From the NCBI GenBank assembly GCA_965115815.1, contig OZ220465.1:2798222-2862221 (forward strand): DNA of 64,000 nt. Reading direction: 5' to 3'. Of this stretch, positions 26,470-62,590 are shown piece after piece. The notes below the pieces were generated by a model that saw only the letters and a program-made list of their open reading frames with translations, had not been told where the DNA came from and did no database searches. Position 1 is the first letter of the stretch, and every line of letters starts with the position of its first letter. This stretch comes from Alphaproteobacteria bacterium (GTDB lineage Bacteria > Pseudomonadota > Alphaproteobacteria > TMED109). Both the position numbers and the translations under genes were made by a program.

Positions 26470-26507
26470 GACCGGGAATCCTCTCTACGAACCAAGGATC
26501 CGGATTC

Positions 26508-27121: not shown

Positions 27122-27174
27122 GAGCTACCGGGGACCCGGGTTGCAGGAATTCAGGAAGGACATGCGACGGCCCG

Positions 27175-28346: not shown

Positions 28347-28349
28347 CGC

Positions 28350-28922: not shown

Positions 28923-28981
28923 GCTCCAGATATAGCTTCCCCGGTTGCGGGATGCCACCGTGCACGGTGGCATCTCCGGCC

Positions 28982-33517: not shown

Positions 33518-33619
33518 GGGGCTCTCCCGAAACGAAAGGACGGAGGCCGGTCCGGCCGACCCGCGGTCGTCCCCATTGTATCGTAGACACGAAGCTCGGG
33601 CGGCACTCGGGACGGAGTC

Positions 33620-35160: not shown

Positions 35161-35163
35161 CGG

Positions 35164-36255: not shown

Positions 36256-36339
36256 ACGCCGCGACCGGACCTGCCTGTTACAGTGCCGACCCCCGCAATC
36301 CCCGGCCAGGGAGAACCTCCCGGCCCGCCGGAGGTTCCC

Positions 36340-36975: not shown

Positions 36976-37045
36976 CCGGCTGGAGGATTCCCACCGCCCG
37001 CGCCATATCGTGCATGCAACCCCGGCTTCAGCGGAGCAACTTCCC

Positions 37046-38479: not shown

Positions 38480-38486
38480 CGCCGGA

Positions 38487-38918
38487 TCAGTGCTCCAGGA
38501 CGGTCAGGGGAAGTTCCCGGAAGTCGCCGCGGAGGGCCAGCCAGGCCCGAACCTCCCACCGCGGCCCGGATCCCGCGATCAACCAGACCAGCCCGGGCTC
38601 GTTCAGACAGCGCCGGTCCGTCTCCGAAGGAGCGGCGGTTCCGGACGGGTGGGAGTGGTACACGCCCACCAGCGGTTCGGCGCCGCTCCGGGCCGCGCGC
38701 TGCACGCGCAGCCGGACGGCGGGATCGACTTCGAACCTGCGCACCGGATCGGACGCGAGGTTGCGACTCGGGACGCAGCCGCTGAGCATGATTCGATCGG
38801 ACCCCGCCCGCCCGAGCAGCAGCCCGCAGGCCTCTTCGGGGGCCGCCGCCTCGGACGCCGCACGCACGCTCTCAAGCAACGACCGCGGGGCCGTCACGCA
38901 GGGACCGGAATCAGGCAT
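38487..38918 (-). CDS. MPN/JAMM-family metalloprotease (Mov34/RadC-like)
   Basis: ..EACGLLLG..VGVYHSHPSGTAAPSETD.. (JAMM motif). Confidence 0.8.
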   Translation of the reverse strand: MPDSGPCVTAPRSLLESVRAASEAAAPEEACGLLLGRAGSDRIMLSGCVPSRNLASDPVRRFEVDPAVRLRVQRAARSGAEPLVGVYHSHPSGTAAPSETDRRCLNEPGLVWLIAGSGPRWEVRAWLALRGDFRELPLTVLEH

Positions 38919-39081
38919 GCGGATCGTCGGCCGGGACCGTCGGGGCGCCGGCACCCCCCTGACCTGCAAGATCGACCAGGACCGCGATGAGCACCGCCGT
39001 GCCGGCCAGGATGGCAGCCCCCATGACGATCACCACAGCCAGCAGGATGCGCTCGGTTCTCGCTTGAAGGAGTTTCCGCAC
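38911..39081 (-). CDS. hypothetical small membrane protein
   Basis: GTG 39081 with GGGAGG upstream. One TM helix ILLAVVIVMGAAILAGTAVLIAVLV. 8-nt overlap with the next gene. Confidence 0.35.
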   Translation of the reverse strand: MRKLLQARTERILLAVVIVMGAAILAGTAVLIAVLVDLAGQGGAGAPTVPADDPHA

Positions 39082-39083
39082 CC

Positions 39084-40112
39084 GTGCCTCCCACCGGTCC
39101 GGTCCGCGAAATCGACTGGATCGTACCGCAGAACACGCCCCCGATGCGGATCGACCGGCTGGTGGCGGCAACCATCGGGACCCTCAGCCGATCGCAGGCG
39201 AGGTCCCTGATCGAACAAGGGAACGTGACCGTGGACGGAGCCGTCGAATCCAGCCCTTCTGCCCTCGCCCGTCCCGATGTCCGGATCGCGGTCCGCATTC
39301 CACCGCCGCCCCCGGCCGACCCCCGCCCGGCGCTCCTCCCGCTCGATATCGCCTACGAGGACGAACACCTCATCGTCATCAACAAACCGCCGGGCCTGGT
39401 CGTCCACCCGGCTCCGGGCCGCCGCGGCGATACCCTCGTCGACGCCCTGCTCGCTCACTGCGGAGACCGTCTCTCGGGCATCGGCGGCGGAACCCGGCCC
39501 GGCATCGTGCACCGTCTGGACCGGGATACGTCCGGCCTGCTGGTCGCGGCCAAGACCGACGAGTCCCATATCCGGCTGGCGGCGGCAATCTCCGCCCGGG
39601 AGGTGAAGCGCATCTACCAGGCCGTCTGCTGGGGCCTGCCGGTCCCCCGAACCGGCCGCATCGAGCGGCCCATCGGCCGCCATCCCCGGCACCGCACCCG
39701 CATGGCCGTCGTGGCGCAGGGCGGACGAACAGCGGACACGCACTACCGCACACGGTTCGATGTCGGCGGGAAGGTGAGCCTGCTGGAGTGCCGGTTGGGG
39801 ACCGGCCGAACCCACCAGATCCGCGTGCATCTGGCGTCGGCGGGCTGTCCGCTGATCGGCGACACGCTGTACTGCCGGGCCCGCACCCCTTCCGCCAGCC
39901 TGGGCCCGGCCCTCCGGACCAGCCTTCGCGCCTTTCCCCGGCAGGCCCTGCATGCGCACCGGCTCGCATTCCTTCACCCCGTCACCGGCGTTCCGCTGCG
40001 CCTGACCGCCGCCCCTCCGCGCGATCTCGGGATTCTGCTGCAAACCCTGCAGGCCGCACGGCACGACGAACCCGCATCCCTTGCCAGAACCGCGCCCGAA
40101 CGGCATCTATAG
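39084..40112 (+). CDS. rluD: RluA-family 23S rRNA pseudouridine synthase (RluD-like)
   Basis: S4-like N-terminus. ..LIVINKPPGLVVHP..IVHRLDRDTSGLLVAAKT..GRTHQIRVHL. Confidence 0.9.
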   Translation: MPPTGPVREIDWIVPQNTPPMRIDRLVAATIGTLSRSQARSLIEQGNVTVDGAVESSPSALARPDVRIAVRIPPPPPADPRPALLPLDIAYEDEHLIVINKPPGLVVHPAPGRRGDTLVDALLAHCGDRLSGIGGGTRPGIVHRLDRDTSGLLVAAKTDESHIRLAAAISAREVKRIYQAVCWGLPVPRTGRIERPIGRHPRHRTRMAVVAQGGRTADTHYRTRFDVGGKVSLLECRLGTGRTHQIRVHLASAGCPLIGDTLYCRARTPSASLGPALRTSLRAFPRQALHAHRLAFLHPVTGVPLRLTAAPPRDLGILLQTLQAARHDEPASLARTAPERHL

Positions 40113-40168
40113 GAACCCGTCTTCCTCCGCGCCTCCCTCTCCCGGGGGCGTTTCCGGACCGTCCGCGC

Positions 40169-41101
40169 ATGGCCAATCTCGCTCTGCCCGTCCTCGCCCA
40201 AACCGGACTCGCACGCTATCTCAAGGAGATCCACCGGTTCCCGATGCTGAGCCGGGACGAGGAGTACACGGAAGCCACCGCCTGGCGCCAACACCAGGAC
40301 ATCGACGCGGCCCATCGGCTGGTCACCAGCCACCTGCGCCTCGCCGCGAAGATCGCGATGCGGTTCCGGGGATACGGCTTGCCCGTCACCGATCTCATTC
40401 AGGAAGCGAACATCGGCCTGATGGAGGCCGTCAAGCGGTTTGATCCGGACCGGGGGTTTCGGCTCTCCACCTATGCCATGTGGTGGATCCGGGCCGCCGT
40501 CACGGAGTATGTCCTGCACTCTTGGTCGCTCGTGAAGATCGGTACCACGGCCGCCCAGAAAAAGCTGTTCTTCGGACTTCGCCGAATGAAGAGCGACCTC
40601 CAGCTCATCGACGGCGGCGACCTCGCGCCCAAACAGGTCGAGGAGATCGCCCGGCGCATGGAGGTTCCCGAACGGGAAGTCGTGTCCATGAACCGACGCC
40701 TCGCCGGCACGGACCAGTCGCTCAACGCCCCGGTGGGGGAGGCGGAGGACGGATCGGAATGGATCGACTGGGTCGAAAGCGACGAGGACGACATCGAGGA
40801 GGCACTGGCCGAATCGGAAGAACTGGCGCAACGACGGGCCCTTCTGGGCCGGGCCCTCGCCGAACTCAACGACCGCGAACGTCGGATCTTCACCGCCCGG
40901 CGATTGTGGGAGACTCCGCGTACGCTCGAATCGCTGAGCAACGAGTTCGGCGTCAGCCGCGAACGGATTCGTCAGATCGAGGTCCGTGCCTTCCAGAAGG
41001 TGCAGGCCTCCATGCGCGACGCCGTCGCACGACACGAACCCGTCCCCGGAAGATTGAAGGCCCTGCCGCCATCGGATCGGGTCATCGTCGCAGCCTCCTG
41101 A
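40169..41101 (+). CDS. rpoH: RNA polymerase sigma-32 factor
   Basis: RpoH box QKKLFFGLRRMK. Regions 2 (DLIQEANIGLMEAVKRFDP) and 4 (SLSNEFGVSRERIRQIE). Confidence 0.93.
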   Translation: MANLALPVLAQTGLARYLKEIHRFPMLSRDEEYTEATAWRQHQDIDAAHRLVTSHLRLAAKIAMRFRGYGLPVTDLIQEANIGLMEAVKRFDPDRGFRLSTYAMWWIRAAVTEYVLHSWSLVKIGTTAAQKKLFFGLRRMKSDLQLIDGGDLAPKQVEEIARRMEVPEREVVSMNRRLAGTDQSLNAPVGEAEDGSEWIDWVESDEDDIEEALAESEELAQRRALLGRALAELNDRERRIFTARRLWETPRTLESLSNEFGVSRERIRQIEVRAFQKVQASMRDAVARHEPVPGRLKALPPSDRVIVAAS

Positions 41102-41844
41102 ACCACCGCGCACGGCGCCGCCGTCGGTTCGAGACTGCCCTCCGGATGCGTCCACGCTCCTTGGGTTCCGGACGCGGAGGGCCGGCCAATGGCAGGAAGA
41201 CGCCACAAGCCGGCACACGCGGTCTGCCGGCCGCACCGCCTTCCTCGGGTAGCCGTCCCCTCAGACGTCCGGCCGTTCCTTGACTTCCCGGTCCGTTGCG
41301 CTCCGCTGACTCCCGTTTCTCCCTGCCTCAGCCCGGTTCTCGGCCGGGCCCCTCGCGCAACCGCCTGAACCGCGACCGTCGCGCAATGTCGAAGCCCGTT
41401 ACGGACGCCGAATGGAATTTCTCCGGTGTCAGCTTGTGCCACCGATCAGGAACGATGTCCGATCGCACGTCACAGAGTTCCTTCGCGCTGCCGGTGATGC
41501 GGTTCCCGCTCGCTGCATCCGTTCCCGGAAATCGCGCCGCGCGATCGCGCAACCGGCGTCCAATCGTGTTTTCGTCCAGCACAGCCATTCGCGCCGGATC
41601 CCGAGATCGCTTGAAGGGTCGTCGGAACGGGTCATGACGATCTGCGAACCGAGGAGCTTCCGGCATGCAGTGGCGGTGGCGCGACGGGCGCCAGGGGGCG
41701 GTCGGCGGCAATCCGTACTCACTCACGGCCACGAAGGCACGCACTCCCGTCCGACCCGGCCCTCGACGAGATCGGAAACACGGGGTTTCGGATGTGGACA
41801 GGATAGAATGCTGTACACAGTCGAATTCCGTGATTCCTCAATCG

Positions 41845-42090
41845 GCACCGTGGCCGGCAATATCCGGCACGTCTTCCAAATCGATACGGCCATGGTTGAT
41901 CAACTGCGTCCGGGTCGTCATCGGCGATACGTCGAAGTGATCCGCGGCTTCGTTCTGCTTTTCTTCGGAGTAGTCGCCGTTCAGCATCTCCTCCATCGAG
42001 GAAAACGGGCTCAATAACTCGGCAGCGAAGGCTCGTTGCGCCTTCTGTCTGTAGCTGTGGGCGCGTGTTGCCGGATACAGCCGGTCGACG
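41845..42090 (-). pseudogene. possible ImmA/IrrE-type metallopeptidase remnant
   Basis: Only ..YRQKAQRAFAAELLSPFSSMEEML..AADHFDVSPMTTRTQLINHGRI resembles the C-terminal part of DUF955/ImmA proteins. No HExxH motif. Stops upstream. Confidence 0.25.
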
Positions 42091-42319
42091 TATCGAACTC
42101 CATGCGCACGACCCCCAGAGGGAACCCTGCCCCCAAAGGCTCAACGGCTGCCGGACCGATCCTCGAAACGGGCATGCCGGGAACCAATCAACCGAAGCGA
42201 TAATTTGCGGACGGGCCCTCATCGATTGGCGTAGCCGGTGTCGTGTACGCGAAGTCCTGTACGAAATACCCCGTCCCGACCCGGAACTTCCGGCTTCCCT
42301 TGATTGAGCCTCCCGGCGC

Positions 42320-42648
42320 TCAAGAAGCGATTCCCGTGAACAGGGCGAGGGCGCGGTTCACCGCCACCATGTCGGCATCGTCAAGATGCCCGAAAACCTG
42401 TCCGATACGGCGCGTTCCCGCCGAGAAGATCTGATCGACATGACATAGGAACGCGTGCGCAGACCATTGTTCCCGGAGGGCTCGACCGGCACACGTATCA
42501 GCGGAACGTCGAGTGCGGCCGAAGTCAGCAATACGACTGTGACCGTCAACGTCAGTTGGGCGAAAAGGTCCGATCGGATCACCAGCGCCGGGCGCGGTTT
42601 GCCATGTTCGCCCTGCAGCGCAACGGTGACGAGGTCGCCGCGCCTCAC
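42320..42648 (-). pseudogene. MazF/PemK-family toxin, 1-nt frameshift near 42440
   Basis: MRRGDLVTVALQGEHGKPRPALVIRSDLF..VVLLTSA..PLIRVPVEPS..NGLRTRSYVM continues in another frame as VDQIFSAGTRRIGQVFGHLDDADMVAVNRALALF. Confidence 0.75.
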
Positions 42649-42896
42649 TCCTTGTGTCCGGCTTCAAGGATATCCAGATGTTCGGCAAGATCGTCCGCCG
42701 CCGCGTCCATGAATTGCATGAGTTCGGGGTCAGCACGGTTGGCCGCATCGACGACTACAGCTTGGCGGGCGCACTCTTCGGCAAAGCCGAAGGCGCGGGT
42801 ATCGGGAACCCAGATCTGTATCGGCCGCAGTCCCTGCGCCCTGAGGGCCGCCCTGCGCTTCTCTACGCGTTGCGCACTGGTGGATGCAGGGGCCAT
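42645..42896 (-). CDS. DUF3018-type antitoxin
   Basis: ..RVEKRRAALRAQGLRPIQIWVPDTRAFGFAEECARQ... The stop overlaps the toxin start (ATGA). Confidence 0.75.
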   Translation of the reverse strand: MAPASTSAQRVEKRRAALRAQGLRPIQIWVPDTRAFGFAEECARQAVVVDAANRADPELMQFMDAAADDLAEHLDILEAGHKE

Positions 42897-43199
42897 GGCG
42901 CGTCTCCCATCGAATCGTTGCGCTACATGTAACACTTTTGCCTGTTGCGGGGGAAGGCCTCCGGTCTGATCGAAGGAGCGATCTGTTGTTATCAAATGAC
43001 TGACTTGGAAGGGCGAGTCGAGGAATAGGTGCGGGTGGAGCAGGCCCGCCCAAGTCAGGAACATTCTGCTCTCGAAGGCAGGGCCGGAGTCTCGGGGGAG
43101 CAGAGCCGCAGTGGTGCGAATCCATGACTGATTCGCCGTAATCTCGGGTCGCCTGGATCCCTCACGGGGTCGTGCAGGCCAATCCGGCGAGGGATTCCG

Positions 43200-43936
43200 G
43201 ATGCCCGGGCCGGATGCTGCGCTGCGCCGTTCGACGACGCCGTTTCCTGCTGCCGGGTTCCGTCGCCGGCGGTTCCGGGCTCGGGCAGGGTCAGGATGGC
43301 ATCAAAAGCCTCCTGTGCGCGGGCGGCGTACCGGCGATGGGGGCCGGGTAGATGATGTCGAAAACGGTCGTCCCGACGCGCCCTGGCGTCGGCGGCATGG
43401 ATCGGACCGGCGAGATTGCGCGGCAGGTTGCGCACCTGCACCCGGCAGCGATCCTCGTCCCATGTGCAGTCCCACCTCATGGAGCCGGTTCTCAATCTGC
43501 CGATTCTGGTGCACCGGAGCCGGCCATGGCCCGGGCCCGGCGCGTCGGGCGTCGAGGGAAGTCCGGCGCCGGATCCCTTCGGTGCTGCGCTTGCCGGTAT
43601 TGCGCATTTCCCGCTCGTGCATCTGCGCCCGGCCGGACGACACCCATGAAGAGCGGCCTGGGGGGCCTTGCGGCCCCGGGGATCGCCGGAGAGGTCGACG
43701 ACGGCGCAACGGCGCCACTCGAAACGGCCATGATCCTTGTGAAGGTCGCGTGGCAAGGCGCCTGACGGAAGTCGATCGCTTGGAGATCGTTGCAGATCGT
43801 GTCCCGGTTGCCCTTGATGGTGATGATCCCGGAGTCGGAGCCGCACTCGATTCGGCACCGTGCGGTGTCGTGCCGGACATACAGCGCATCGAGGGTCACT
43901 GCGCATCCGGCAAGGTCGAGATTGCAGGAGTGTTCG
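43200..43936 (-). pseudogene. ISAs1-family transposase remnant (frameshifted, truncated by IS3-2)
   Basis: ..VTLDALYVRHDTARCRIECGSDSGIITIKGNRDT.. and ..HQNRQIENRLHE / WDCTWDEDRCRVQVRNLPRNLA.. lie in different frames. Confidence 0.6.
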
Positions 43937-45193
43937 TGGTCTGCCCCCTGAAACTGGTCCACCCTAAGGTTCAGGATGAGGAGGGCCAACCATGGCCAGA
44001 ACGCGTTCCAAGCCGGATCCGATCGTCCGCCTGCTACGGCAGGTGGAGGTGCTGCTCGGCCAGGACCTGTCGATGGCAGAGGCGATCCGGCGGGTCGGGA
44101 TCCGCGAGGTCACCTTCTACCGGTGGCGCAAGGAGGATGCCGGGAGGAACGGCGACCAGCTACGCCGCCGGAAGGATCCGGAGAAGGAGAACGAGCGGCT
44201 GCGCCGGGCCGTTTCCGACCTGGCGTGGGACCCGCAGATTCTCGAGGAGGCTGCCCGGGGAACCTTCCGAGCCCCTCGCGTCGCCGCCCATGGATCGATC
44301 CTGTCCGTGGTCGGCTCGAGATCTCGGAACGGCGTGCCTGCCGGGTGTCGGGGCCGCATCGCTCGATCCCGCGTCGGGTTCCGCGTCCCCGTGCCGACGA
44401 GAAGCGCCGGGTTGCGAACAGGATCGGGCTGGCTCGCCGGCAGGTCCGCTACGGCTACCGCCGCATCGCGGCCCGGCTGCGCGCCGCCGGCTGGCGGGTC
44501 CACGACAAGAGAATCGAACGCCGGTGGCGGCGCGAGGGGCGGAAGATGCCTGCCCAACCACGGAAACGGAGCCGACTCCGGCTCCGTGACGGCTCCGGTG
44601 TCCGGCTCCGTGCCGAGCGGGTGAACCCCCGTCCGGTCGTACGACTTCGTGCCTCACCGGACCGAGGACGGCCGGGCCTTCCGCAGGCTCAACGTGCGGG
44701 ACGAGTTCCGCCGCGAGAGCCTGGCCCTCCGGGTCCGGTGCAAGCTTTCCTCGAGCGAGGTCGTCGACGTGCCGAGCGATCAGTTCCTCCTGCGGGGCGT
44801 GCCGGGCCCCATCCGTTCCGACCACGGCCCGGAGTTCGTCGCCAAGGTCGTGCGGCGATGGATCTCTGCGGCCGGCGCCCGCACCGCCTTCATCCGGCCG
44901 GGATCCCCCTGGGAGACCGGATTCATCGAAAGCTTCCACGCACGGCTGCGGGACGAGCTCCGGAATGGGGAGATCTTCCACACCCTGAAGGAGGCCCGGA
45001 TTTTCATCGAATCCTAGCGCCGCCACGACCACGCCGTGCGCCCGCACAGCAGCTTGGGATCCCAACCCCCCAACCCCGGAAACGATCATGCCAAGCTGGT
45101 CGGCCGGCTCCGCTACGCTCCGCCGGCCAGCCTGGCGGAGAAGCCGCCCATGCACGGACATTCGCACTGGACCAGTCGATGGGGGCAGGCCAT
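43937..45193 (+). mobile_element. IS3-family insertion sequence (IS3-2)
   Basis: IRs TGGTCTGCCCCCTGAAACTGGTCCA / TGGCCTGCCCCCATCGACTGGTCCA (reverse-complemented). Confidence 0.8.
43992..45190 (+). pseudogene. IS3-family transposase orfA/orfB, frameshifts and in-frame TAG (45015-45017)
   Basis: orfA ..IRRVGIREVTFYRWRKE..EKENERLRRAVSDLAWDPQILEEAA. orfB ..YGYRRIAARLRAAGW..IRSDHGPEFVAK..GSPWETGFIESFHARLRDE..ES*RRH. Confidence 0.8.
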
Positions 45194-45272
45194 TCCCACG
45201 GCGTGACTTGGTTTGCCTTCGGTGGGGCCACGGGTTCCAGTTCCCGGCCCACAACCACCGAGACCGACATTT
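45194..45272 (-). mobile_element. fragment of an IS427-group element
   Basis: Similar to 25861-25935 (..LEPVAPPKANQVTPWEW..). Confidence 0.5.
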
Positions 45273-45454
45273 AATTGAATTGAGATTTCAGCGTGAATCG
45301 TCTTAAAATATTAATCCCGAACAAGAAATCGTATCTCCATTGCGCATCTAGTGTGAATGTAACCTGTCCGAATTGCAGGCAGGGAGACGGATTGAGTACG
45401 CATAGAACACGAAAGCGAAAACGTCTTTGCTGGAATTGAACGTAAATACTCACC

Positions 45455-46890
45455 CCTTGTTGGGGTCGGGTTGGCCGTAGTGCTCGTTGAGGATGTCTGC
45501 GGCCTTTCCGTCGAGGGCGATGTGGATGGCGACGAGAGGGTGGTAGCCGAGTGCCTCCATGGAGGTGAGGAAGCTGGAGCCTCGGCACCATGCGGTTGCG
45601 TGGAGCATGGTGCGGAACCATCCGGACACCTTGATTGACCTTGGTCATTCGGATCTTCGGTTCTCCGGCATGGTGGGTGAAGCGGACGTCGGGGTCCTTC
45701 ATGAAGCGGAGAACGGACGTCTCGTGTTTCACGAGACGTTCGCGCAGGAGATGGCTGCCGCACAGCGGGTGGCGGCACGGATCGTAGCCCCTGTACGCAG
45801 CCCAGCCGTCGTGGACCCGGACGCCCGGGTAGCGCGGGAGGATGCCGATCTCTTCGATCGCCTCCCGACCGCGCGTGCGGTGCGGGAACTTCACGGTCAG
45901 GGTGCCGTCGGTGACGACAGGGAGCCCTGGGGTCTTGCCGGCGACCCGGAATCCGGTCTCATCGACCTGCAAGGCCGGGCGTGGCAGGAGATGGGCCACG
46001 GCGACCTCCTCCCAGGATGCGAGCGCATCCTGAAAGCGCCGGACCTAGCCGAGGCAGGTCGCCTCGGAGAGCCTGATGCCGGAGATCGCGTGCACGAGCG
46101 AGACGGCACGGCGCAGGGACCGCATCTGGGCGATCAGCAGGTTGAGGACCAAGGCCTGGATGCGGACACCGTACTGCACGGGACCCGGCATGAGGTCTGG
46201 GAACCGGCCCTTGGTCCGGGCCCGGCACTTCGGGCATTCCTTGATCTCGGCGTCGACGCGGCGCTCGACGACTTCAAACACGATGTCGTAGAGGACGCGG
46301 CGCTCCCGGTCGACGGGGTCGACGTCGTCGAGGTCGGCGCCGCAGGCGTCGCCGGCATCGACGGTGATCGTCTCCTTGACGGGGGTCGTGCGCCGGGGGC
46401 CGCCCGTCTGCGGGTTCGGCTTCGGGCCCTTGCCGGGGCTCCCGGTGCGCCGCGCGCTCTCGTCCGGGTCCGTCTGGGACGGCGGCAGACCGGAGTTCCG
46501 GCTCGTCGTGCGCGTGGTCTTCTCCATGAGCACGGCCAGCAACCGCTGTATCCGCATCCGCAGGCCGCGGACGAGCGCCTCGCACTCCGGGTGGACCTTG
46601 TCTTGCGTGCGGAGATCCTGGAACCGCTTCCGGAAGGCGTCGACCTCCGGGCGCAGGGACGTGCCGGCGACGCTCGTCCTCCCGATGCCTCCACCACCCG
46701 GACGGCCGCCCGCACGGCGAACCGCTCGCCTTCGGGCATCGTCCGGGAGCGCCGCGCCCCGCTCTCTGCGAGGCGCGGGATGCGCGGGCGGTCGATCGAG
46801 TTCCGGCCCGCGCACGTGGGCCCGTGCGGCCGGCCCGAGGCGAAGGTCGCGAGAACCTGCAGGGCGCAGCCCGGGTGACGTTCCACCGGG
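45455..46890 (-). pseudogene. IS66-family transposase remnant (in-frame TAG 46045-46047, internal deletion, frameshifts)
   Basis: ..SRNSGLPPSQTD..ECPKCRARTKG..LIAQMRSLRRAVSL..QVDETGFRVAGKT..CGSHLLRE..VLRFMKDPDVRFT. Confidence 0.7.
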
Positions 46891-47242: not shown

Positions 47243-47338
47243 CCACCGGGTACTCACAGCGGAAGGAGTCGATCGCCCGGCGGGGGAGGTCGAGGTCGAG
47301 GCTGCGCCGCGCCCTGCCTATGACTCACATCAGTAGGC

Positions 47339-49253
47339 TTGACCGGAGTGCATGGACCCTCTACGGTGCGGCTCCTGTCGGCCATGGAACCCGTGCACCG
47401 CATCTTGAGACAGCCGGCGCATCTGCGCCGGCTGCAGGCGCTTCGGTCCCGGGAGCCGCCGGCCCGCCGTCGGGCCGGGGTCCGTCGGGTGTGTCGGGAG
47501 TTTCGCCTGATCGACGCGCGGGGTCGCTGGCGCGCGCGCAGTTGCCAAGCGGTATTGGAAGATCTGGAGCCCACCCGGCAGGTGCAGTTGCCTCCGCCCC
47601 GCCGGGGCCTGGGTGGGGGCGCTCTCCGGCGGCTGGGCGCGGGAGTTCCGGCGCCGTCGGCGGTGCCTCCGGAAGCGGGTGCGCTGCACGATCTGCGCTT
47701 GGTGCCGGTGACCGGGGAGGCGGACCGGCGGATCTGGAACGAGCTGATGTTTCGGGAGCATCCGTGAGGGGCGGTGCGGCATGTGGGCGCCCAACTCCGG
47801 TATCGGGTTCGATCGGAGCATGGCATCTTGGGGGCCTTGGGCTTTGCGGCGCCGGCCTTGCGCCTGGCTTCCCGGGACCGATGGATCGGGTGGGACGAGA
47901 CCACGCGGTCGCAACACCTGAACCACGCGGTGATCGGTCGGAGCCGGTTCCTGATCCGACCGTCGGTGCGCTGCCGGAACCTGGGCTCCCGGGTGCTGGG
48001 GATGGTGCTGGCCCGGCTGCCCGACGAGATCAAGGCCCGGTACGGGGATCGTCCCCTGCGGGTCGAAACCTTCGTGGATCCGGAAACCCATGCGGGCGCC
48101 GTGTTTGCCGCCGCCGGCTGGGAGCGGGTGGGAGAGACCACCGGGCGGGGGCGGTTCGCCCGTCCCGGGCAGGAGCGGCGGTCGGTCAAGGCGGTGGGGA
48201 TGCGTCCGCTGCGGAGCGACGGGCGGGCGGTTTTGGGTGTGGCACCGGCGCCGGCGGAGGCCTTGGGTCCGGCCGACGGACGGGAGCGGGGGAGCTGGAC
48301 CGCGAACGAGTTCGGCGGAGCTCCGCTGGGGGACCGTCGGCTCAGCCGTCGGTGGGTCACGAGTGCGTCCCTGATGGCCGACCAACCCGGCGCATCGTTC
48401 CCGGCCGCGGCCCGGGGTCAGCGGGCCTTGGTCACCGGGTACTACCGGAGGATCGACCCGCCGGCCGCGTCGGCGGTCCCACCGGAGGCCCTTCCGGCTC
48501 CGTACCGGGAGCGCACCCGCCGACGCATGGCCTCCTGCACGACGGTGCTGAGGATCCAGGACGGATCGGACCTCAACTTCGCGACCCATCCGAAGTGCGG
48601 CGAGCTCGGTCTCATCGGCCGCAACCGGAACGCGTCGGGCACCCGGGGTCTGCACCTGCATTCCACGCTGGCGGTCGACGCGGACACCGGCATTCCCCTC
48701 GGTGTCCCCCGCATCGAATCCGACGCGCCGGACGGCCGGGCCGAGAAGGGCAAGCCGCTCGAAGAACGGAAATCCGCCCGCGGGATGCGGGGGTTGCGAG
48801 ACACCTCGGAGCGGGTTCCGGACGGCGTGCGGGTCGTCTCCGTACTCGATCGGGAGGCGGATTTCTTCGCCCGGTTCGCCGAGCGGCAGCGGCTGGGCAC
48901 CGTCGATCTTCGGGTCCGGGCCCGCCCCAACCGGTCCTTGGGCAAGGACGAAGAGAAGCTCTTCGAGCCACGGGCAGCGGAACCCTCGGCCGGATCCTTG
49001 GAGATCGAAATCGCCCGCCCGTCGGCCCGCACCTCCACCCGCACCCAGAAGGCCCAGGCGCTGCGGGAAGCGCGGGTCGCCAAGGTATCCCTGCAGTTCC
49101 GGCGCTTCGACCTGCCTCCTCCAGGGAACGGAACCGGCGCGCACGACCCCGTGCCCATGACGGCGGTCCGCAGGACCGAAGAAGATCCGCCGGCCGGCGT
49201 GGAGCCCCTGCACGGGATCCTGCTCACCCGCCTGCCGGTATCGACCCGGAAGG
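47339..49253 (+). pseudogene. D1 transposase, N-terminal 3/4 (in-frame TGA 47765-47767, then interrupted by C2)
   Basis: Collinear with the D2 protein. D2 has TGC (Cys) where D1 has TGA. Many Trp->Gly changes. Confidence 0.85.
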
Positions 49254-49341
49254 CACGGCCATCCCACGCTAGGTTTGTTGGAAGGCTGGGTTCCGCGGAT
49301 TCCGGATGATTCGGATTGGTGCTGGCTTTTTGTGAAGCGGC

Positions 49342-50876
49342 GTGGTATCCGTGGTGGTCATGGAACGCGCCGCGGATGTTTTCGAGACGACTCCGGAGGG
49401 TTTTGCGCTCCGGGATGTGGTGGTGCGCTTGGCGCGGCCGGATGAGGTGTGTCGCTGGAACCGTGTGGTGGACCGTCATCATGATCTTGGTTTCAAGCAG
49501 TTTGCGGGTCGAGGTCTGCGCTACGTGTTCACGTGGCGCGGGCGGTGGATGGGCGCTGCGGGCTGGCAGACGGGCGCCTTCCGTTGTGCGCCGCGGGACC
49601 GTTGGATGGGTTGGCGCCGCAAAGAACCGTTGGAGCGGTTGCATCTGATCAGAAACCACACGAGGTTTGTGATTCTGGGAGGTCGCCGAGCGTTTCGGGG
49701 TCTTGCCTCGTTTGCGTTGTCGCGGATGCAGCGGCGTCTCAGCGACGACTGGGAGGCTGCGTACGGCAATCCGTTGCTGGTGGCGGAATCGTTTGTCTCG
49801 CCGACGAAGTTCCGCGGCACCCTGTACAGGGCAGCGAACTGGAAGTACGTGGGCAGGAGCAAGGGCTATGCACGTGCCAACGGGCGCTCTACCGATCCGC
49901 ACGGGGAGGCGAAGGATCGGTACGGGGTTCCGCTGCGTCGCGACGCCTGTCGTCGGTTGCGGGATCGTGCGCCGCTTCCTGCGGCGTGGGAGTTGCGGGC
50001 GACGCAGAGCGGCCGGTCGGCGCGGGAGGTGCGCTCGATGTACCCGCATTTTGCGGCGCTTTCCGACTTCCGGCGCGCGCAGGGGCGCACGCACGGCATC
50101 GCCTCGGTCCTGTGCGTGATCGTGCTGGCGCGGCTGGCGAATCGGCACGGCGCGGTGGCCGCGGCACGCTACGCGAAGGCGATGACGCAGAAGGATCTGG
50201 CGCAGATCGGTGCGTGGAAGAACCCGGACACCGGCCGGTATGAACCGGTATCTAAATCGACCGTGCACCGGGTGCTGCAGAACACCGACCCGACGTGGAT
50301 CGAGGAGGCTCTGCGGCGCTGGGCGCAGCCGTGCCTGCGGGTCGGCCACGCGATCGCGGTCGACGGCACGCGCATTCGCGGCGCCCACCGCACCGGCGAG
50401 GATCCTAACGAGACGGTCTCGCGGATCGAGCACGGGACCGGCATGCCGGTCTCGATCCTCAACGATCATGACGAAGGCGGGGAGATCGCCGCCGTCCACG
50501 CCGCGCTCGAGACCGCGCCGGTGGCCGGCCGTCTACTCACGCTCGACGCGCTCCACACCACCCGCGAGACGGCACGACGGATCGTCGAGACCCATGGCGC
50601 CGACTGGATGATGACGGTCAAGGGCAACGCTCCCAAGACCTTCGAGACGTTCGAGAGCATCAACTGGGAAACCACAAGCACGGGACGCTACCGCGAAACG
50701 CCCACGCTCGAGCACGGCCGCATCGAGCCGCGCAGCATCGAAGTTTTTACCCCTCCAGCGAAGATGATCCACGATCCTCATGTCAAACCGATCTTCCGTG
50801 TCACCCGGCGCGTCGAATTCAAGAAATCTGGAAAACAGACCATGGAACACGCCTACGGCAGGACTTCGGTCGCGGC
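49342..50876 (+). pseudogene. C2 DUF4338 + ISAs1 transposase, interrupted by D2 (remainder 53306-53577)
   Basis: Continuous 514-aa ORF up to the D2 insertion, with no TAG at the C1 position. The C-terminal rest is ..NRGHWVVESHHPIRDTTFREDDSR.. after D2. Confidence 0.85.
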
Positions 50877-53305
50877 CTGCCTATGACTCACATTGTTTAT
50901 CTGGACGTAAGCGCTGGTACAGCCCGCTGGACTGATCCAGCTTCAACAGACGTTCGTAGGTTTGAGCCATCGTCGCCAGCTGAGTGTACCCTCGCCAGAT
51001 CACTGTGGGGCCGGGCGCGGGGTCGTTGCGACGGTTGAGATAGCCTCCGAGGATCGCCATGGTGTGCACGGCGGTTCCTAGGTTGTCGGGTCGGCACGGA
51101 AGCTTGCGCTCAAGGGCGAAATCCTTGAGCACCAGGATTTCCGTCGTGCAGAACAGGACCTCGGCGGGCAGTTCGGGGGTTTCCCGTCCGAGCATGACCA
51201 TGGCGAAGAGTCGCCAAGCGATCACGGCCTTGATCGTGACCGCCCGTTCGATCCGGTGTCCTTCCCGGTGGTTGAGGAATTCCGCCTTGCATCCGCTTTT
51301 CAGGACCCGGTGCCAATCCTCGATCCGCCAGCGCAGGCGGTACCGTTCCAGCACCCGCCGCGCCTCCTTCCGGGTCGATACCGGCAGACTGGTGAGCAGG
51401 ATCCAATTCAGGGGCTCCACGCCGTCCGGCGGATCTTCTTCGGTCACGCGGACCGCCGTCATGGGCACGGGGTCGTGCGCGCCGGTTCCGTTCCCGGGAG
51501 GAGGCAGGTCGAAGCGCCGGAACTGCAGGGATACCTTGGCGACCCGCGCTTCCCGCAACGCCTTGGCCTTCTGGGTACGGGTGGAGGTGCGGGCCGACGG
51601 GCGGGCGATTTCGATCTCCAGGGATCCGGCCGAGGGTTCCGCGGCCCGTGGCTCGAAGAGCTTCTCTTCGTCCTTGCCCAGGGACCGGTTGGGGCGGGCC
51701 CGGACCCGAAGATCGACGTTGCCCAGCCGCTGCCGCTCGGCGAACAGGGCGAAGAAATCCGCCTCCCGATCAAGTACGGAGACGACCCGCACGCCGTCCG
51801 GAACCCGCTCCGAGGTGTCTCGCAAGCCCCGCATCCAGCGGGCGGATTTCCGTTTTTCGAACGGCTTGCCCTTCTCGGCCCGGCCGTCCGGTGCGTCGTA
51901 TTCGATGCGGGGGACGCCAAGGGGAATGCCGGTGTCCGCGTCGACCGCCAGCGTGGAATGCAGGTGCAGACCCCGGGTGCCCGACGCGTTCCGGTTGCGG
52001 CCGATGAGACCGAGCTCGCCGCACTTCGGATGGGTCGCGAAGTTGAGGTCCGATCCGTCCTGGATCCTCAGAACGGTCGTGCAGGAGGCCATGCGCCGGC
52101 GGGTGCGCTCCCGGTGCGGAGCCAGAAGGGCCTCCGGTGGGACCGCCGACGCGGCCGGCGGGTCGATCCTCCGGTAGTACCCGGTGACCAAGGCCCGCTG
52201 ACCCTGAGCGGCGGCCGGGAACGATGCGCCGGGCTGATCGGCCATCCGGGACGCACTCGTAACCAACCGGCGGCTGAGCCGACGGTCCCCCAGCGGAGCT
52301 CCGCCGAACTCGTTCGCGGTCCCGCTCCCCCGCTCCCGTCCGTCGGCCGGACCCAAGGCCTCCACTGCCGTCGACGCCACGCCCAGGATCCGGCGCCAGT
52401 CGCTCCGCAGCGGACGCATCCCCACCGCCTTGACCGACCGCCGCGCCTGCCCGGGGCGGGCGAACCGCCCCCGCCCGGTGGTCTCTCCCACCCGCTCCCA
52501 GCCGGCGGCGGCAAACACGGCGCCCGCATGGGTTTCCGGATCCACGAAGGTTTCGACCCGCAGGGGACGATACCCGTACCGGGCCTCGATCTCGTCGGGC
52601 AGCCGGGCCAGCACCCTCCCCAGCACCCGGGAGCCCAGGTTCCGGCAGCGCACCGACGGTCGGATCAGGAACCGGCTCCGACCGATCACCGCGTGGTTCA
52701 GGTGTTGCGATCGCGTGGTCTCGTCCCACCCGATCCATCGGTCCCGGGAAGCCAGGCGCAAGGCCGGCGCCGCAAAGCCCAAGGCCCCCAGGATGCCGTG
52801 CTCCGACCGAACCCGATACCGGAGTTGGGCGCCCACATGCCGCACCGCCCCGCACGGATGCTCCCGAAACATCAGCTCGTTCCAGATCCGCCGGTCCGCC
52901 TCCCCGGTCACCGGCACCAGGCGCAGGTCGTGCAGCGCACCCGCTTCCGGAGGCACCGCCGACGGCACCGGAACTCCAGCGCCCAGCCGCCGGAGAGCAC
53001 CCCCACCCAGGCCCCGGCGGGGCGGAGGCAACTGCACCTGCCGGGTGGGCTCCAGATCTTCCAATACCGCTTGGCAACTGCGCGCGCGCCAGCGACCCCG
53101 CGCGTCGATCAGGCGAAACTCCCGACACACCCGACGGACCCCAGCCCGACGGCTGGCCGGCGGCTCCCGGGACAGAAGCGCCTGCAGCCGGCGCAGATGC
53201 GCCGGCTGTCTCAAGATGCGGTGCACGGGTTCCATGGCCGACATGAGCCGCACCGTAGAGGGTCCGTGCACTCCGGTCAAGCCTACTGATGTGAGTCATA
53301 GGCAG
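50877..53305 (-). mobile_element. IS4-family (Tn5-like) insertion sequence D, copy D2 (apparently intact)
   Basis: Same ends as D1. 8-bp TSD GTCGCGGC / GGCGCGGC (one mismatch) at 50869-50876 / 53306-53313. The target is continuous in C1. Confidence 0.9.
50881..53280 (-). CDS. DUF4338 + Tn5-like IS4-family DDE transposase (intact, 799 aa)
   Basis: ..RDRWIGW..RFLIRPSVRCRNLGSRVL..PLRVETFVDPETHAGAVFAAAGWERVGETTGRGR. LRIQDGSDL, VLDREAD, YRLRWRIEDWHRVLKSGC. Confidence 0.9.
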   Translation of the reverse strand: MTGVHGPSTVRLMSAMEPVHRILRQPAHLRRLQALLSREPPASRRAGVRRVCREFRLIDARGRWRARSCQAVLEDLEPTRQVQLPPPRRGLGGGALRRLGAGVPVPSAVPPEAGALHDLRLVPVTGEADRRIWNELMFREHPCGAVRHVGAQLRYRVRSEHGILGALGFAAPALRLASRDRWIGWDETTRSQHLNHAVIGRSRFLIRPSVRCRNLGSRVLGRVLARLPDEIEARYGYRPLRVETFVDPETHAGAVFAAAGWERVGETTGRGRFARPGQARRSVKAVGMRPLRSDWRRILGVASTAVEALGPADGRERGSGTANEFGGAPLGDRRLSRRLVTSASRMADQPGASFPAAAQGQRALVTGYYRRIDPPAASAVPPEALLAPHRERTRRRMASCTTVLRIQDGSDLNFATHPKCGELGLIGRNRNASGTRGLHLHSTLAVDADTGIPLGVPRIEYDAPDGRAEKGKPFEKRKSARWMRGLRDTSERVPDGVRVVSVLDREADFFALFAERQRLGNVDLRVRARPNRSLGKDEEKLFEPRAAEPSAGSLEIEIARPSARTSTRTQKAKALREARVAKVSLQFRRFDLPPPGNGTGAHDPVPMTAVRVTEEDPPDGVEPLNWILLTSLPVSTRKEARRVLERYRLRWRIEDWHRVLKSGCKAEFLNHREGHRIERAVTIKAVIAWRLFAMVMLGRETPELPAEVLFCTTEILVLKDFALERKLPCRPDNLGTAVHTMAILGGYLNRRNDPAPGPTVIWRGYTQLATMAQTYERLLKLDQSSGLYQRLRPDKQCES

Positions 53306-53803
53306 GGCGCGGCCGACCGCGCCTCGCAGGGAACCGCGGTCACTGGGTGGTCGAAAGCCATCACCCCATCCGCGATACCACCTTCCGCGAAGACGACTCC
53401 AGGCTCCGGGCCCGCAACGCACCCGCAAACCACGCGATCCTCCACACCCTTGCCCTTGCCGTCATCCTCCACCACCAGCGGAAGCTGCCCCAGCCCTTCC
53501 ACAGCTTCGCCGACGCCCGTCACCCCTATGCCGACCAGCGCAAGCAGGTCCTGCACGCCGTCACAAGACCCGGCTGACTACGCTCACAACCCGACCGAAA
53601 CCGCAAGGATCCAAGCCGGGCCACCCAACCCGGCCGGCCTCTCGCTCGCCCCGGATCCGCCGAAACGGACCCCTCGCGCCTAAATCCGCGCCGCCACCGG
53701 GCCGCAGACGTCCGCACATCGCACAATCGCAGACTCGAACGCGTCGACCCGCGCCGCGATCGAGACTCCGATCGCATCACAGCAACAAGCATGGGATCTC
53801 CTT

Positions 53804-54299
53804 GACCCGGAAGGAGGCGCGGCGGGTGCGGGAACGGTACCGCCTGCGCGGGCGGATCGAGGACGGGCACCGGGTCCTGAAACGCGGATGCAAGGCGGAA
53901 TTCCTCCACCACCGGGAAGGACACCGGATCGAACGGGCGGTCACCATCAAGGCCGTGATCGCCTGGCGACTCTTCGCCATGGTCATGCTCGGACGGGAAA
54001 CCCCCGAACTGCCCGCCGAGGTTCGGTTCTGCACGACGGAAATCCTGGTGCTCAAGGATTTCGCCCTTGAACGCAAGCTTTCGTGCCGACCCGACAACTT
54101 GGGAACCGCCGTGCACACCATGGCGATCCTCGGGGGCGATCTCAACCGTCGCAACGACCCCGCGCCCGGCCCCACAGTGATCTGGCGAGGGTACACCCAG
54201 CTGGCGACGATGGCTCAAACCTACGAACGTCTGTTGAAGCTGGATCCATCCAGCGGGCTGTACCAGCGCTTACGTCCAGATAAACAATGTGAGTCATGG
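53804..54299 (+). pseudogene. D1 transposase, C-terminal part
   Basis: ..EARRVRERYRLRGRIEDGHRVLKRGCKAEF..RPDKQCES. Continues from 49253 once C2 and one TSD copy are removed. Confidence 0.85.
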
Positions 54300-54650
54300 G
54301 CAGGCCGCGCCAGCGGCGGGCGCGTCCGGATCGCGCCGCCCCCCAAGGAACGCCTCCAGGTACACGTCCTGCGGCGGCCGGGCCGCGACGATCGCCGGGC
54401 TCCGACCCGTCGTCGCCTTCGATCCCTACCCGGCCGCCGGCCGCCATCCACACCTCCGACGCGGTCCGCCCCGATGGCCCATCTTGGAGAGGGTCCCTCC
54501 TACAACGTCAAGCGCAGATCTCCGGCGGAGGGAAACGGCAGCCCACGGAACCCGCTCCACCGGACCGCACGGCGGACCCGCGACGTCCCGCGCGGGGTGC
54601 CCGGTCGCGTTGCGGACCCTGCACCATTCACGCGCGCGATTTCCAGCGCC

Positions 54651-56888: not shown

Positions 56889-57031
56889 CGAAGATCGATC
56901 CGCTTCTTGTCAGCCGGACCCCGTGCATCCGGTCCTCGGCCGCGAGCGAGTGAAAGGGGCGCGGGACAATGCCGGATCCGAACCCGTCAGGAAAAACGAT
57001 TCGTCATCAGTAGGGGGGGGGTGAGTAGATA
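56889..57031 (-). mobile_element. MITE-2 copy c, truncated and split by the E1-IS630-E2 block
   Basis: Collinear with the reverse complement of MITE-2a from ..GAAGATCGATCC.. to ..GGGTGAGTAGATA. The last base follows at 62734. Confidence 0.6.
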
Positions 57032-57244
57032 GTGCCCGCCCGAAAATGCCCCTTTCGGATGGTCTGCCGGCGCAATTGCGGGTTGGGACCCTCCCTCGGT
57101 GCCCCGTCCGCTCGGTTTCCGGGGGGATTTCTGCCGATGGGCAGCGGTATCCGGGCTTGTCCCGCCGCGAATCCGGCTGCCGGGGCGAGCGGCTCCGTTC
57201 CCGCCTCCGGCGGGCTTCGCGGATGGGGTGGAAGGAAGCCGCCG

Positions 57245-59158
<1,914 letters not shown>

Positions 59159-59301
59159 TCTCCCGAAGATTCCCGAATCCCGCGCGATTTTCCGGCCCCA
59201 GCGGCCGATTCCCGGCCCACAGAGGGATTCTTCACCCCTTCAATAGCACACTTCTATCACTGGAGTCAACTGGTTGTACTTTTTCGGGCGGGCACAAACT
59301 A

Positions 59302-60694: not shown

Positions 60695-60910
60695 TAGTGC
60701 CCGCCCGAAAATGCCCCTTTCGGATGGACCGCCGGCGCAATTGCGGGTTGGAACCCTCCCTCGGTGCCCCGTCCGCTCGGTTTCCGGGGGGATTTCTGCC
60801 GATGGGCAGCGGCATCCGGGCTTGTCCCGCCGCGAAATCCGGCGGCCGGGGCGAGCGGCTCCGTTCCCGCCTCCGGCGGGCTTCGCAGATGGGGTGGAAG
60901 GAAGCCGCCG

Positions 60911-62590
60911 TCAGGCGGCGCGTCTTCGTCGTCGTTGGGCCCGGGCCCGGGCCTGCCGGTGCAGCAGCAGCCCGATTCGGTGGACGTTGAAGGCGGTCAC
61001 GGACCGTGCCACCCTCCGGGCAAACCCGTCCGCCCCCTACGACAGGACCCGGTCCATGCCGCGTTGCTCGAGGTTGTGGATCGCGGACTCCACGGCCGGA
61101 TGCTGCCGACGCATCTTCCGGAACGTCGGATCGGCTTCCCGTTTCCGGTCCGTCTGACCGAGCGTTCCCTTCTTCGGCAGCACGTTGTGCTCCAGAAGCT
61201 CGTCCAGGGTGATCCGGTTGGAGGGGCTGTGAAAGCCCCGATCGAAACTGCACAGGCGGAGGTCGGGGAAGCGAGCCTGGGCTTCTCGGATCATGGGCAC
61301 GGCAGGATCCACGTCTCCGCCTTCCCACAGGACCCGAGGGTGCAGGAGGAAGCCGTGCTGATCCTCCAGCACGGCCACCGGCACTCCGAGTTCCACCGGC
61401 ACCCCGGCCTTGCCCTTCACACACCAGCGTGTGTGCTCTTCGAAGATCGAAAACCCCTTCTCGCTCTGCGGAATCTTCTCGCCCTTCAGCAGACGGCGAT
61501 CCACCTGGTGGATCTGCCGGCGGGCATGCTTGAGGTACGACTCGACCGAACGCACCGTGGGGATCGGGACGCCTCGCTCCCGAAGCACCGGTACCGTCTC
61601 TTCCGCCCGCCGGACCCACGCCCGGCTGGCGTCGAGATACGCCTTGACCGGCTCCGGACGGGCCCGTCGGGTCTGCCGAACCTGCTGGAAATGCTGCTGC
61701 AGTTTCCGGCTCCCATGCTGCCACTGCCGCCATCCGGACACCCCCAAGCGTACGGCGGCGCGACCCGGATCCCGCACCAAGCAACGCATCGCATCCCACA
61801 ACAGATGGACATCTGTCGGGTAGTGCACATCCGTCTTCACCACGAACGAATCGCAGCGGCCCCGCAGGGGATCGTCCGACCGACGGCGGCCCCGGCCGTT
61901 CGCGCCGTCCGCGCCGTTCGTGCCGTCCTTCCGCTTCCGTGTCCGCTTCCGTACCCTCGCATGGCCTTTCTCCGCGATCAGCTGCGACACCTTCCCCAGC
62001 ACTTCCGGTGTCCGCAGGCTCACGTTGTCCACCATCGTCGGATATCCGTACCGGGTGTGATCCCAGATGTCGGTGTGCCCCAGAAACTTCCGAACCGTCC
62101 TGTGCTCGTTCACCCGCTCGTGCATGGGATCGAAGTCCTAGCCCAAACCCTGCTTCAGGAGACCCATCACCAGGATCTTCCACAACTCCATGCCGGGACG
62201 CCCTCGCAGGCGGGATCCCTCGGGAAGGATCCCCTCCTCCAGAATCTCGAACCACCGGACCCGGGTCGACCGGTCGGCATACACGTACTGAAGGCCACGC
62301 AGCAGCGGCGGAATGTCCTCCCGCGAGTGTACGTGGATCTCGATCTCCTCGATCGCAACCTGGCCCCATTCCAGCTGAGAGCCTGTGCGGAAACTATTGA
62401 GCGGTCCCGATTCTGGTATCTGCGATTTGGCTGGAGAGTACATCGGGATCAAACAAGCCCATTCCACATCTGTCAGATTGCTTTCGAAGCGGTCTCTCCG
62501 ACGCCGATACTTTGCACGAGCGGCCAGAATCGGGACCGCTCAATAGTTTCCGTACAGGCTCTGAGGACGGACGGTCTCCCGCATGGCCAT
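60911..62590 (-). pseudogene. E2 transposase: MITE insertion, in-frame TAG (62138-62140), frameshifts
   Basis: Collinear with the E1 protein. E1 has TAT (LGYDFD) where E2 has TAG. The short repeat version is KDGTNGADGANGRGRRR. Confidence 0.8.
62379..62561 (-). mobile_element. MITE-1 copy 4
   Basis: Full-length copy, flanked by TGA/TGA. E1 and E3 are uninterrupted at this site (..CCAGCTGAG(A/G)GCGGACG..). Confidence 0.85.

Follow-up and report, generated by a model that had tools for sequence, protein, structure and literature searches.

Directional A:T>C:G substitutions in a T-before-G context among insertion-sequence copies of an alphaproteobacterial genome

Nested insertion sequences and their substitution spectrum

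The DNA analysed here is a 64-kb stretch of contig OZ220465.1 (assembly GCA_965115815.1), assigned to an alphaproteobacterium of TMED109 and referred to, at its full length, as the window. It has a guanine-plus-cytosine (GC) content of 68% and a GC content at third codon positions (GC3) of 80–89%, and it is crowded with insertion sequences (ISs), among which a three-level nest at 47314-54303 is the main subject of this study: one copy of an element, D2, lies within a copy of a second element, C2, which in turn lies within another copy of the first, D1. These limits, named in an earlier reading of the same DNA (the original prediction), are exactly the outer ends of D1, and every target duplication in the nest is recognisable. 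By its transposase domains (Tnp_DNA_bind, DDE_Tnp_1 and Dimer_Tnp_Tn5), its ends (CTGCCTATGACTCAC) and its 8-bp target duplication, D is a Tn5-like member of the IS4 family, and C belongs, by its DDE_Tnp_1_assoc domain and its 11-bp target duplication, to the ISAs1 family. D1 is dead, as it carries a stop at codon 143 in addition to the inserted C2, whose 11-bp target duplication, GACCCGGAAGG, forms the closing 11 bp of the D1 left arm. D2 is the youngest insertion of the nest; the left copy of its target duplication, GTCGCGGC, differs from the right copy, GGCGCGGC, by a single T/G substitution at which the original base, judged by a second ISAs1-like copy of the window (C1), was T. The coordinates of these and the other features are collected in Table 1.

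D1 and D2, each of 2429 bp, are separated by 95 substitutions and no insertions or deletions (indels). The differences comprise 54 transitions, 33 substitutions of the T/G type (an A:T pair in one copy and a C:G pair in the other) and 8 of the G/C type, so that the statement of the original prediction that D1 shows clearly fewer transitions than T/G-type changes is incorrect as a raw count. The D1/D2 transitions are mostly synonymous, and the T>G or A>C changes, taken with D2 as the reference, are non-synonymous in 24 of 26 cases. All the replacements that had been listed for D1 are present, namely five Trp>Gly (TGG>GGG) at codons 295, 482, 626, 651 and 656, which include both Trp residues of YRLRWRIEDWHRVLK, together with Leu>Arg, Ser(AGC)>Arg(CGC), Asn>His, Asn>Thr, Lys>Gln, Tyr>Asp, Tyr>Ser, Met>Leu and Asp>Ala; two of the examples, D619A and N625H, are in fact C>A changes on the D2 side and do not belong to the decay of D1. 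In the right arm of D1, eight differences from D2 are of the A:T>C:G type and none runs in the opposite direction. A hand count made earlier for C1 and C2 agrees with the full comparison over 1633 bp (20 A:T<>C:G, 19 transitions, 6 G/C and 2 A/T), and all repeat pairs of the window taken together differ by 183 transitions, 133 A:T<>C:G, 26 G:C<>C:G and 6 A:T<>T:A substitutions.

The direction of change becomes apparent once the differences are polarised by an outgroup and a pristine copy, as the original prediction had proposed. The outgroup, L001, is the best relative in the genome collection searched (74% amino-acid identity), and further D-copy DNA was taken from the ENA assembly ERZ24894574, which contains L063a (99.3% identical to D2), L062a (with an intact 784-amino-acid frame) and the dead copy L062b. 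Over the 1664 sites at which L001 and the pristine L062a agree, 137 distinct events were counted in the four other D copies: 57 A:T>C:G, 44 G:C>A:T, 15 G:C>C:G, 14 A:T>G:C, 7 G:C>T:A and no A:T>T:A. A:T>C:G is thus the commonest class (57/137); per site it exceeds its reverse about 20-fold (57/509 vs 7/1155 for G:C>T:A, p=3e-23), and it exceeds the transition from the same base pair four-fold (57 vs 14 A:T>G:C, p=3e-7). The load of A:T>C:G changes per copy is 48 in L062b, 40 in D1, 32 in L063a and 27 in D2, whereas L062a has only one among its own 13 derived changes. For D1 alone, the changes polarised by L001 and L062a (n=26) comprise 17 A:T>C:G, 6 G:C>A:T, 2 A:T>G:C and 1 G:C>T:A; among the 33 T/G-type sites that separate D1 and D2, 17 are A:T>C:G events in D1, 1 is such an event in D2, 3 are G:C>T:A and 12 remain unpolarised. 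The coding strand is hit equally at A (31) and at T (30). Transitions have no GC bias in this set (A:T>G:C 14/509 vs G:C>A:T 44/1155, p=0.31); the bias is therefore specific to one class, as would be expected if a single kind of mispair were involved, and this specificity speaks against a general GC-biased conversion and against selection for GC. The class and the GC-raising direction that had been proposed for the decay accordingly stand, and the spectrum is nearly pure in several copies (for instance, 43 A:T>C:G vs 3 transitions in P0123). In short, dead and non-autonomous IS copies have accumulated a strongly directional, near-pure A:T>C:G spectrum, and the underlying observation is stronger than the original prediction had described.

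Table 1. Positions of the nested elements and of the other features of the window
Feature	Coordinates	Strand	Description
D1 left arm	47314..49253	+	IS4/Tn5-like; DruA-like N-terminal domain; 96.1% identity to D2
C2 left arm	49254..50876	+	ISAs1-like; DruA and DDE_Tnp_1_assoc domains; 97.1% identity to C1; inserted in D1, with D2 inserted in it
D2	50877..53305	-	2429 bp; 799-amino-acid open frame (53280->50881); terminal repeats CTGCCTATGACTCAC
C2 right arm	53306..53803	+	Opens with the 8-bp D2 target duplication GGCGCGGC
D1 right arm	53804..54303	+	C-terminal catalytic signature, in D1 YRLRGRIEDGHRVLKRGC
C1	23347..25474	+	Second ISAs1-like copy; inside a group II intron reverse-transcriptase gene; frame broken at about 24334
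H element	19481..22711	+	Third DruA-IS4 family; in-frame repeat of 39 bp x 8.8; 3' end duplicated in tandem (566 bp)
IS427-like copy 1	9239..10061	+	IS5 family; partner is copy 2
IS427-like copy 2	25689..26512	-	IS5 family; partner is copy 1
F/E element copy 1	57030..59301	-	DDE_Tnp_1 transposase; 9-bp x 49.6 in-frame repeat
F/E element copy 2	60695..62382	-	Additional F/E fragment at 26719-27127
G repeat copy 1	8646..9195	+	Partner at 10253-10794
Control stretch	27046..46807		Single-copy host genes (sox, flavocytochrome c sulfide dehydrogenase, TldD, others) and IS remnants; 99.9-100% identical to the second haplotype contig

Sequence context, family-wide load and host specificity

The A:T>C:G changes are concentrated in a defined context. 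A mutated T is followed by G in 74% of cases, against 34% of unmutated T (p=3e-9), and both a preceding G (15% vs 35% of unhit sites) and a following C (10% vs 45%) are depleted at hit sites; the base 5' of the hit T is C in 48%, A in 25%, G in 15% and T in 13%, with no enrichment of 5' T. The preferred target is therefore T before, and not after, G (H-T-G), which corresponds on the other strand to A after C. In L062b, the most heavily loaded of the four copies, 31% of H-T-G sites are mutated, against 5% of G-T-G, 5% of T-T and 1% of T-C (H-T-G vs T-C, p=7e-18). The same context recurs in the other repeat pairs of the window, in which a G follows the T at 64 of the 94 T/G-type differences, the background being 31% (p=5e-13). 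The individual pairs contribute unequally: 26 of 36 T/G-type differences between the F/E copies stand in the T-G context, as do 8 of 9 in the G repeat pair, which has 9 T/G-type differences vs 7 transitions, and 7 of 13 in the IS427-like pair, and T/G-type sites make up about 44% of the differences between copies of the H element. The IS427-like pair had been said to look the same as D1 and D2, but transitions dominate there (31 vs 13). No fewer than two unrelated IS families of the window bear the T-G-context A:T>C:G signature, as probably do all the others.

The pattern was also replicated across the whole D family, using 25 D proteins from the protein database (about 25 paralogues on one contig of 4,566,314 bp, which a TldD match of 100% identifies as the source) and the 589 codons at which L062a and the outgroup protein agree. 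The distinct non-synonymous variants number 86 A:T>C:G, 54 G:C>A:T, 50 A:T>G:C and 11 G:C>T:A; counted as occurrences, A:T>C:G (566) stands against 172 transitions and against 17 G:C>T:A. The load per copy ranges from 6 to 49 A:T>C:G changes, with 0–11 transitions in all but one old copy. In the C family, which is unrelated to D and is represented by 41 protein fragments, 88 A:T>C:G variants were found together with 59 transitions and 2 G:C>T:A, at loads of 0–34. In neither family is the A:T>C:G load correlated with transitions (rho 0.08 for D and 0.19 for C), and such uncoupling fits a short, intense phase. An equation of load with the age of a copy was rejected, given that the youngest insertion, D2, has 27 derived A:T>C:G changes relative to L062a and the outgroup, which it inherited.

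Related DruA-IS4 elements in other hosts behave differently. Copies of equal GC content (67–69%) from three other long-read metagenome-assembled genomes (MAGs), an Acidobacteriota (12 copies), a second Acidobacteriota (3 copies) and a Paracoccaceae (4 copies), have only 9%, 9% and 7% of A:T>C:G, which is symmetric with G:C>T:A and has no T-G preference; the excess in the source genome over related elements elsewhere is significant at p=2e-17. Since related elements in three equally GC-rich MAGs are ordinary, the spectrum is a property of the host, rather than of the element, of base composition or of the assembly pipeline.

A proposed phase of G-opposite-A errors and its alternatives

The explanation favoured here, at a probability of about 0.45, is a phase of G-opposite-A errors at the level of the host, the products of which were spread among the copies by trans-mobilisation and gene conversion. 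In such a phase, dGTP or 8-oxo-dGTP would be misinserted opposite a template A that has C as the next template base, and the mispair would be sealed at once by the correct insertion of dGTP, a next-nucleotide or transient-misalignment effect suggested by general knowledge of polymerases. The mispair would then become a mutation either by being left uncorrected or through a MutY-type activity taking out the template A. The process was probably confined to a bounded period, because the latest private changes look ordinary: private variants comprise 29 A:T>C:G vs 79 transitions, which is close to a usual ratio, and recent private differences are mostly transitions, so that the process may be over, or may not be genome-wide. 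Nearly all A:T sites of a 68% GC genome lie at codon positions 1 and 2, and purifying selection may have shielded those host genes that are functional, as well as the master IS copy, while mutated copies would still have been copied in trans and would have swapped sequence by ectopic gene conversion; as a result, the same changes would be found in many copies and in mosaic patterns.

Several observations weigh against this explanation. The A:T>C:G variants of the D family are shared far more widely than transitions (42 of 86 vs 6 of 104 occur in at least 5 copies, p=5e-12), the same holds for the C family (p=1e-6), and the H-T-G targets are bimodal, as 95 of 167 lack any hit, where a uniform rate would leave 4.4 without one, and 28 are hit in at least 10 copies. 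Such wide sharing and bimodality need a change of spectrum over time, the copying of mutated elements, or a class-specific spreading, and they fit three readings, namely an intense phase of A:T>C:G change in the past with later copying of the mutated elements, class-specific spreading and extreme hotspots; the idea that every H-T-G site is equally mutable was rejected on the same counts. Further, host DNA yields no clear trace in three tests, each of low power: the 12 single-copy single-nucleotide polymorphisms (SNPs) between strains, all of them in one 3.4-kb patch, consist of 10 transitions and 2 transversions with none in the T-G context; at four-fold sites of host genes, T before G accounts for 5.6% vs 8.5% elsewhere, where a long-standing bias predicts a depletion of about five-fold; and the lineage-specific replacements of TldD include 1–2 of 12 in the A:T>C:G class, which is no excess. 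A long-standing genome-wide bias is unlikely on the basis of these three weak tests, which leave room for a short genome-wide episode as much as for a process restricted to repeats. Finally, we infer the episode as well as its mispair mechanism and the involvement of MutY.

A process restricted to repeats or ISs, for instance error-prone repair synthesis at IS excision and restoration or during ectopic recombination, a MutY-type very-short-patch repair of A/G heteroduplexes that drives G alleles, or a defence resembling repeat-induced point mutation (RIP), would account for the absence of a signal in the weak host-DNA tests, for loads that are uncoupled from transitions, and for A:T>C:G variants far more widely common than transitions across subfamilies. 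Up to 31% of sites in the CpA/TpG context are hit, on both strands, in a manner recalling RIP. A second haplotype contig, ctg6149l (ERZ24894574; loci L064-L066), which was separately assembled and is collinear with the window at 24.5–50.3 kb (24465-50312) save for two IS-containing insertions absent from the window, likewise lends itself to a restriction of this kind: single-copy DNA and IS remnants (about 21 kb) show no difference outside one 3.4-kb patch (30234-33592), which looks like an imported recombination tract, and a further 5 kb is identical, whereas the orthologous copies of the mobilisable C1, C2 and D1 differ at 0.7–1.5%. The ten differences in C1 are all of the T/G type, and together with unconverted markers flanking the extra G's of L063a they can be read as ongoing, IS-targeted de novo mutation. 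This reading was rejected, because of the 17 testable alleles 16 (8 in the coding part of C1 and 8 among the 9 coding A:T>C:G sites that distinguish L063a from D2) are found in the family at 15–70% in any case, so that templated conversion from unsampled donors of the same subfamily suffices; as family polymorphism is mostly of the T/G type, the 10:0 class ratio of C1 is not significant and carries little weight. That IS paralogues undergo ectopic gene conversion within a very short time is shown directly by the orthologous D1 (L065), which in a 315-bp patch (47692-48006) has 36 differences from the window and a 12-bp deletion between identical flanks. With ordinary templated conversion as an explanation of the haplotype and sibling differences, with no de novo IS-restricted event demonstrated and no direction of conversion inferable, and with a new host-specific mechanism needed to explain why other hosts carry the same IS family unaffected, a repeat-restricted process is a doubtful alternative. 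It is quite unlikely in its more particular form, in which a host-encoded process would turn A into C at CpA, on either strand, specifically in repeated mobile DNA, through recombination-linked repair or a dedicated enzyme, thereby disabling ISs without stops as a functional analogue of RIP.

The original prediction had read the spectrum as that of a MutT defect. In that case, the loss of the NUDIX 8-oxo-dGTPase, past or present, would leave unsanitised 8-oxo-dGTP to be inserted opposite A throughout the genome, and the IS copies would act as neutral recorders. This reading holds as regards class, direction and host specificity: the class is nearly pure in many copies (43:3, 41:4 and 32:4 vs transitions), the per-site asymmetry over G:C>T:A is 20-fold, and a host-specific effect is expected of a sanitation or repair defect, repair genes being often lost in genomes with such an IS expansion. 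It fails on the published mutT context, since the T strand has a strong 3'-G preference with no 5'-T enrichment, and on the missing signal in host DNA (strain SNPs, four-fold sites and TldD, all weak tests); classical MutT loss is hence unlikely, and no NUDIX/mutT, mutY or mutM gene lies within the 64-kb window. An origin of the changes outside this genome, with copies that had been exposed to a mutator background in an earlier host or on a plasmid before they entered, is very unlikely. The 27 derived changes of the recently inserted D2 do imply that changes travel with copies, but two unrelated families with 25–40 chromosomal copies each, at graded loads of 0–49 and with pristine copies beside mutated ones, as well as the occurrence of the same context in small non-autonomous repeats of the window, speak against such an origin. 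General GC-biased gene conversion or selection for GC, acting on standing variation and amounting to the amelioration of recently arrived and slightly AT-richer elements, would agree with the net rise in GC and with a genome of 68% GC and GC3 of 80–89%; the confinement of the bias to a single class of transversion that depends on a dinucleotide context, transitions without the bias (A:T>G:C 14 vs G:C>A:T 44), an absence from related elements in equally GC-rich genomes and the destruction of catalytic residues make these processes highly improbable as the cause. A sequencing, consensus or collapsed-repeat artefact was considered because the source is a metagenome assembly (with metaMDBG-style contig names) and the substitutions always lengthen a G or C run. 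It is scarcely credible, as copies differ despite an identical local sequence, L062a has none of about 60 changes although L062b has 48 on the same contig 5.5 kb away, D1 and D2 have no indels between them, two contigs assembled independently of each other match at 100% along 5 kb, and multi-copy relatives in MAGs of the same accession style (OZ/CBD prefixes, UUID isolate names) have ordinary spectra.

Among known single defects, the loss of MutT is nonetheless the closest by resemblance, as the A:T>C:G changes of MutT-deficient Escherichia coli and Pseudomonas aeruginosa are near-exclusive, unidirectional and GC-raising and affect both strands, just as here. They differ in the template, which is an A with a 3' A for mutT and 8-oxo-dGTP (GAA/TTC being the top triplet and TAA/CAA hotspots; 10.1101/2022.10.21.513255; PMC12318082) and an A after C, that is, T before G, in the present copies. 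The incorporation of oxidised dGTP by polymerase IV (Pol IV, DinB) also produces A>C with a trinucleotide preference and many loss-of-function replacements to Ala and Gly, and its targets are A with a 5' G and/or a 3' C (GAC/GTC, AAC/GTT; PMC12318082); these flanks are depleted at the hit sites (-1 G 15% vs 35%; +1 C 10% vs 45%), and the Pol IV signature was rejected. T>G hotspots at T after G runs, explained by transient misalignment (Cherry 2022, 10.1101/2022.10.28.514265; 'AC3+' in PMC13250602), share with the present changes a context-driven A:T>C:G that reproduces an adjacent G. Their geometry is mirrored, as the G run there lies 5' of the T, while here a single 3' G is preferred, a 5' G is disfavoured and no run is needed; a hotspot at T after at least three G was likewise rejected, with G-T-G mutated in 5% vs H-T-G in 31%. 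The T-followed-by-G context of A:T>C:G is previously undescribed and matches none of the published MutT, Pol IV and G-run signatures.

Two other kinds of system invite comparison. Fungal RIP converts the C of CpA to T and raises the AT content. It resembles the present case in the heavy point mutation of repeated mobile DNA on both strands, the CpA/TpG preference, the absence of indels and the graded loads, and it differs in the altered base, which is here the A of CpA, changed to C. To our knowledge no RIP has been described in bacteria; a literature search for a RIP-like process in bacteria returned nothing relevant, and one for MutY-driven biased conversion returned nothing directly relevant among the titles and abstracts. 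A diversity-generating retroelement was rejected, given that both A (31) and T (30) are hit on the coding strand and that the nearby reverse transcriptase is of the group II intron type and split by C1. The original prediction took A:T>C:G to be, as a rule, the rarest class in bacteria, which does not hold generally. In mutation-accumulation lines of the GC-rich Deinococcus radiodurans, A:T>C:G and A:T>G:C reportedly occur at similar frequencies, without a net mutational bias towards AT. Wild-type spectra of that type differ from the present one, in which the class exceeds 90% of the changes in some copies and has a defined T-G context.

The spectrum has consequences for annotation. T>G and A>C changes can create a stop only through TAT>TAG or TTA>TGA, and L062a has only four such codons in 784, so that decayed copies retain long open frames; the 'intact' frame of D2 contains 27 derived replacements, many of them radical, and D2 has probably lost its function. 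Because this decay almost never makes stops, a transposase frame without interruption cannot be taken, in such genomes, as evidence of function. The prevailing view is that bacterial mutation is AT-biased even in GC-rich genomes, a high GC content being left to selection or biased conversion, and in the present lineage, a natural one, a single transversion class moved neutral DNA towards GC and rewrote up to a third of the susceptible sites. If genome-wide, the process would show a GC-raising mutator at work in nature and provide a new signature of mutation for which other genomes could be screened; if confined to repeats, it would represent a new kind of genome defence.

Other elements and host genes

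The structural differences between the two haplotypes include an H-element insertion between 41684 and 41845, another inside C1 at 25040-25048, and an extra 4.8-kb IS block beside 25847-25857. The reverse-transcriptase gene interrupted by C1 (22659-24187, minus strand, Pfam RVT_1) was taken as being of the group II intron type, and a further reverse-transcriptase fragment lies within the extra block of the other haplotype.

The DruA-like domain (PF14236), which takes its name from a Druantia defence protein, forms the N-terminus of transposases from two superfamilies. It is carried by the IS4/Tn5-like D, H and a third paralogue and by the ISAs1-like C (50881-53280, minus strand; 49342-50886, plus strand; 16732-19116, plus strand; and 17789-20137 of L066). 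In-frame tandem repeats occur within transposase genes at 58231-58676 (9 bp x 49.6, read by Pfam as collagen-like GXY) and at 20830-21173 (39 bp x 8.8, DATEREGTEAPDR-like), and copies of the H element vary in their repeat number. The tandem duplication of the H 3' end (21580-22145 and 22146-22711) has 98.2% identity, and its 10 differences comprise 6 transitions and 4 of the T/G type, all four in the T-G context. A repeat of about 190 bp is present four times, in both orientations and at 97–99% identity (8462-8649, 46930-47119, 62375-62564 and 63644-63833), beside different IS elements, and may be an element like a miniature inverted-repeat transposable element (MITE) or a common IS end.

Between 46000 and 57000, where GC content is 68–72%, open reading frames (ORFs) of hundreds of codons occupy nearly every frame on both strands; ORF length is consequently no evidence of a gene here, and the real frames were chosen by GC3. 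Adjoining the IS-rich region is a sulfur-oxidation cluster at 27175-31066 (130-4021 of L064), which encodes SoxA, SoxZ, SoxY, a cytochrome c and flavocytochrome c sulfide dehydrogenase and is intact in both haplotypes.

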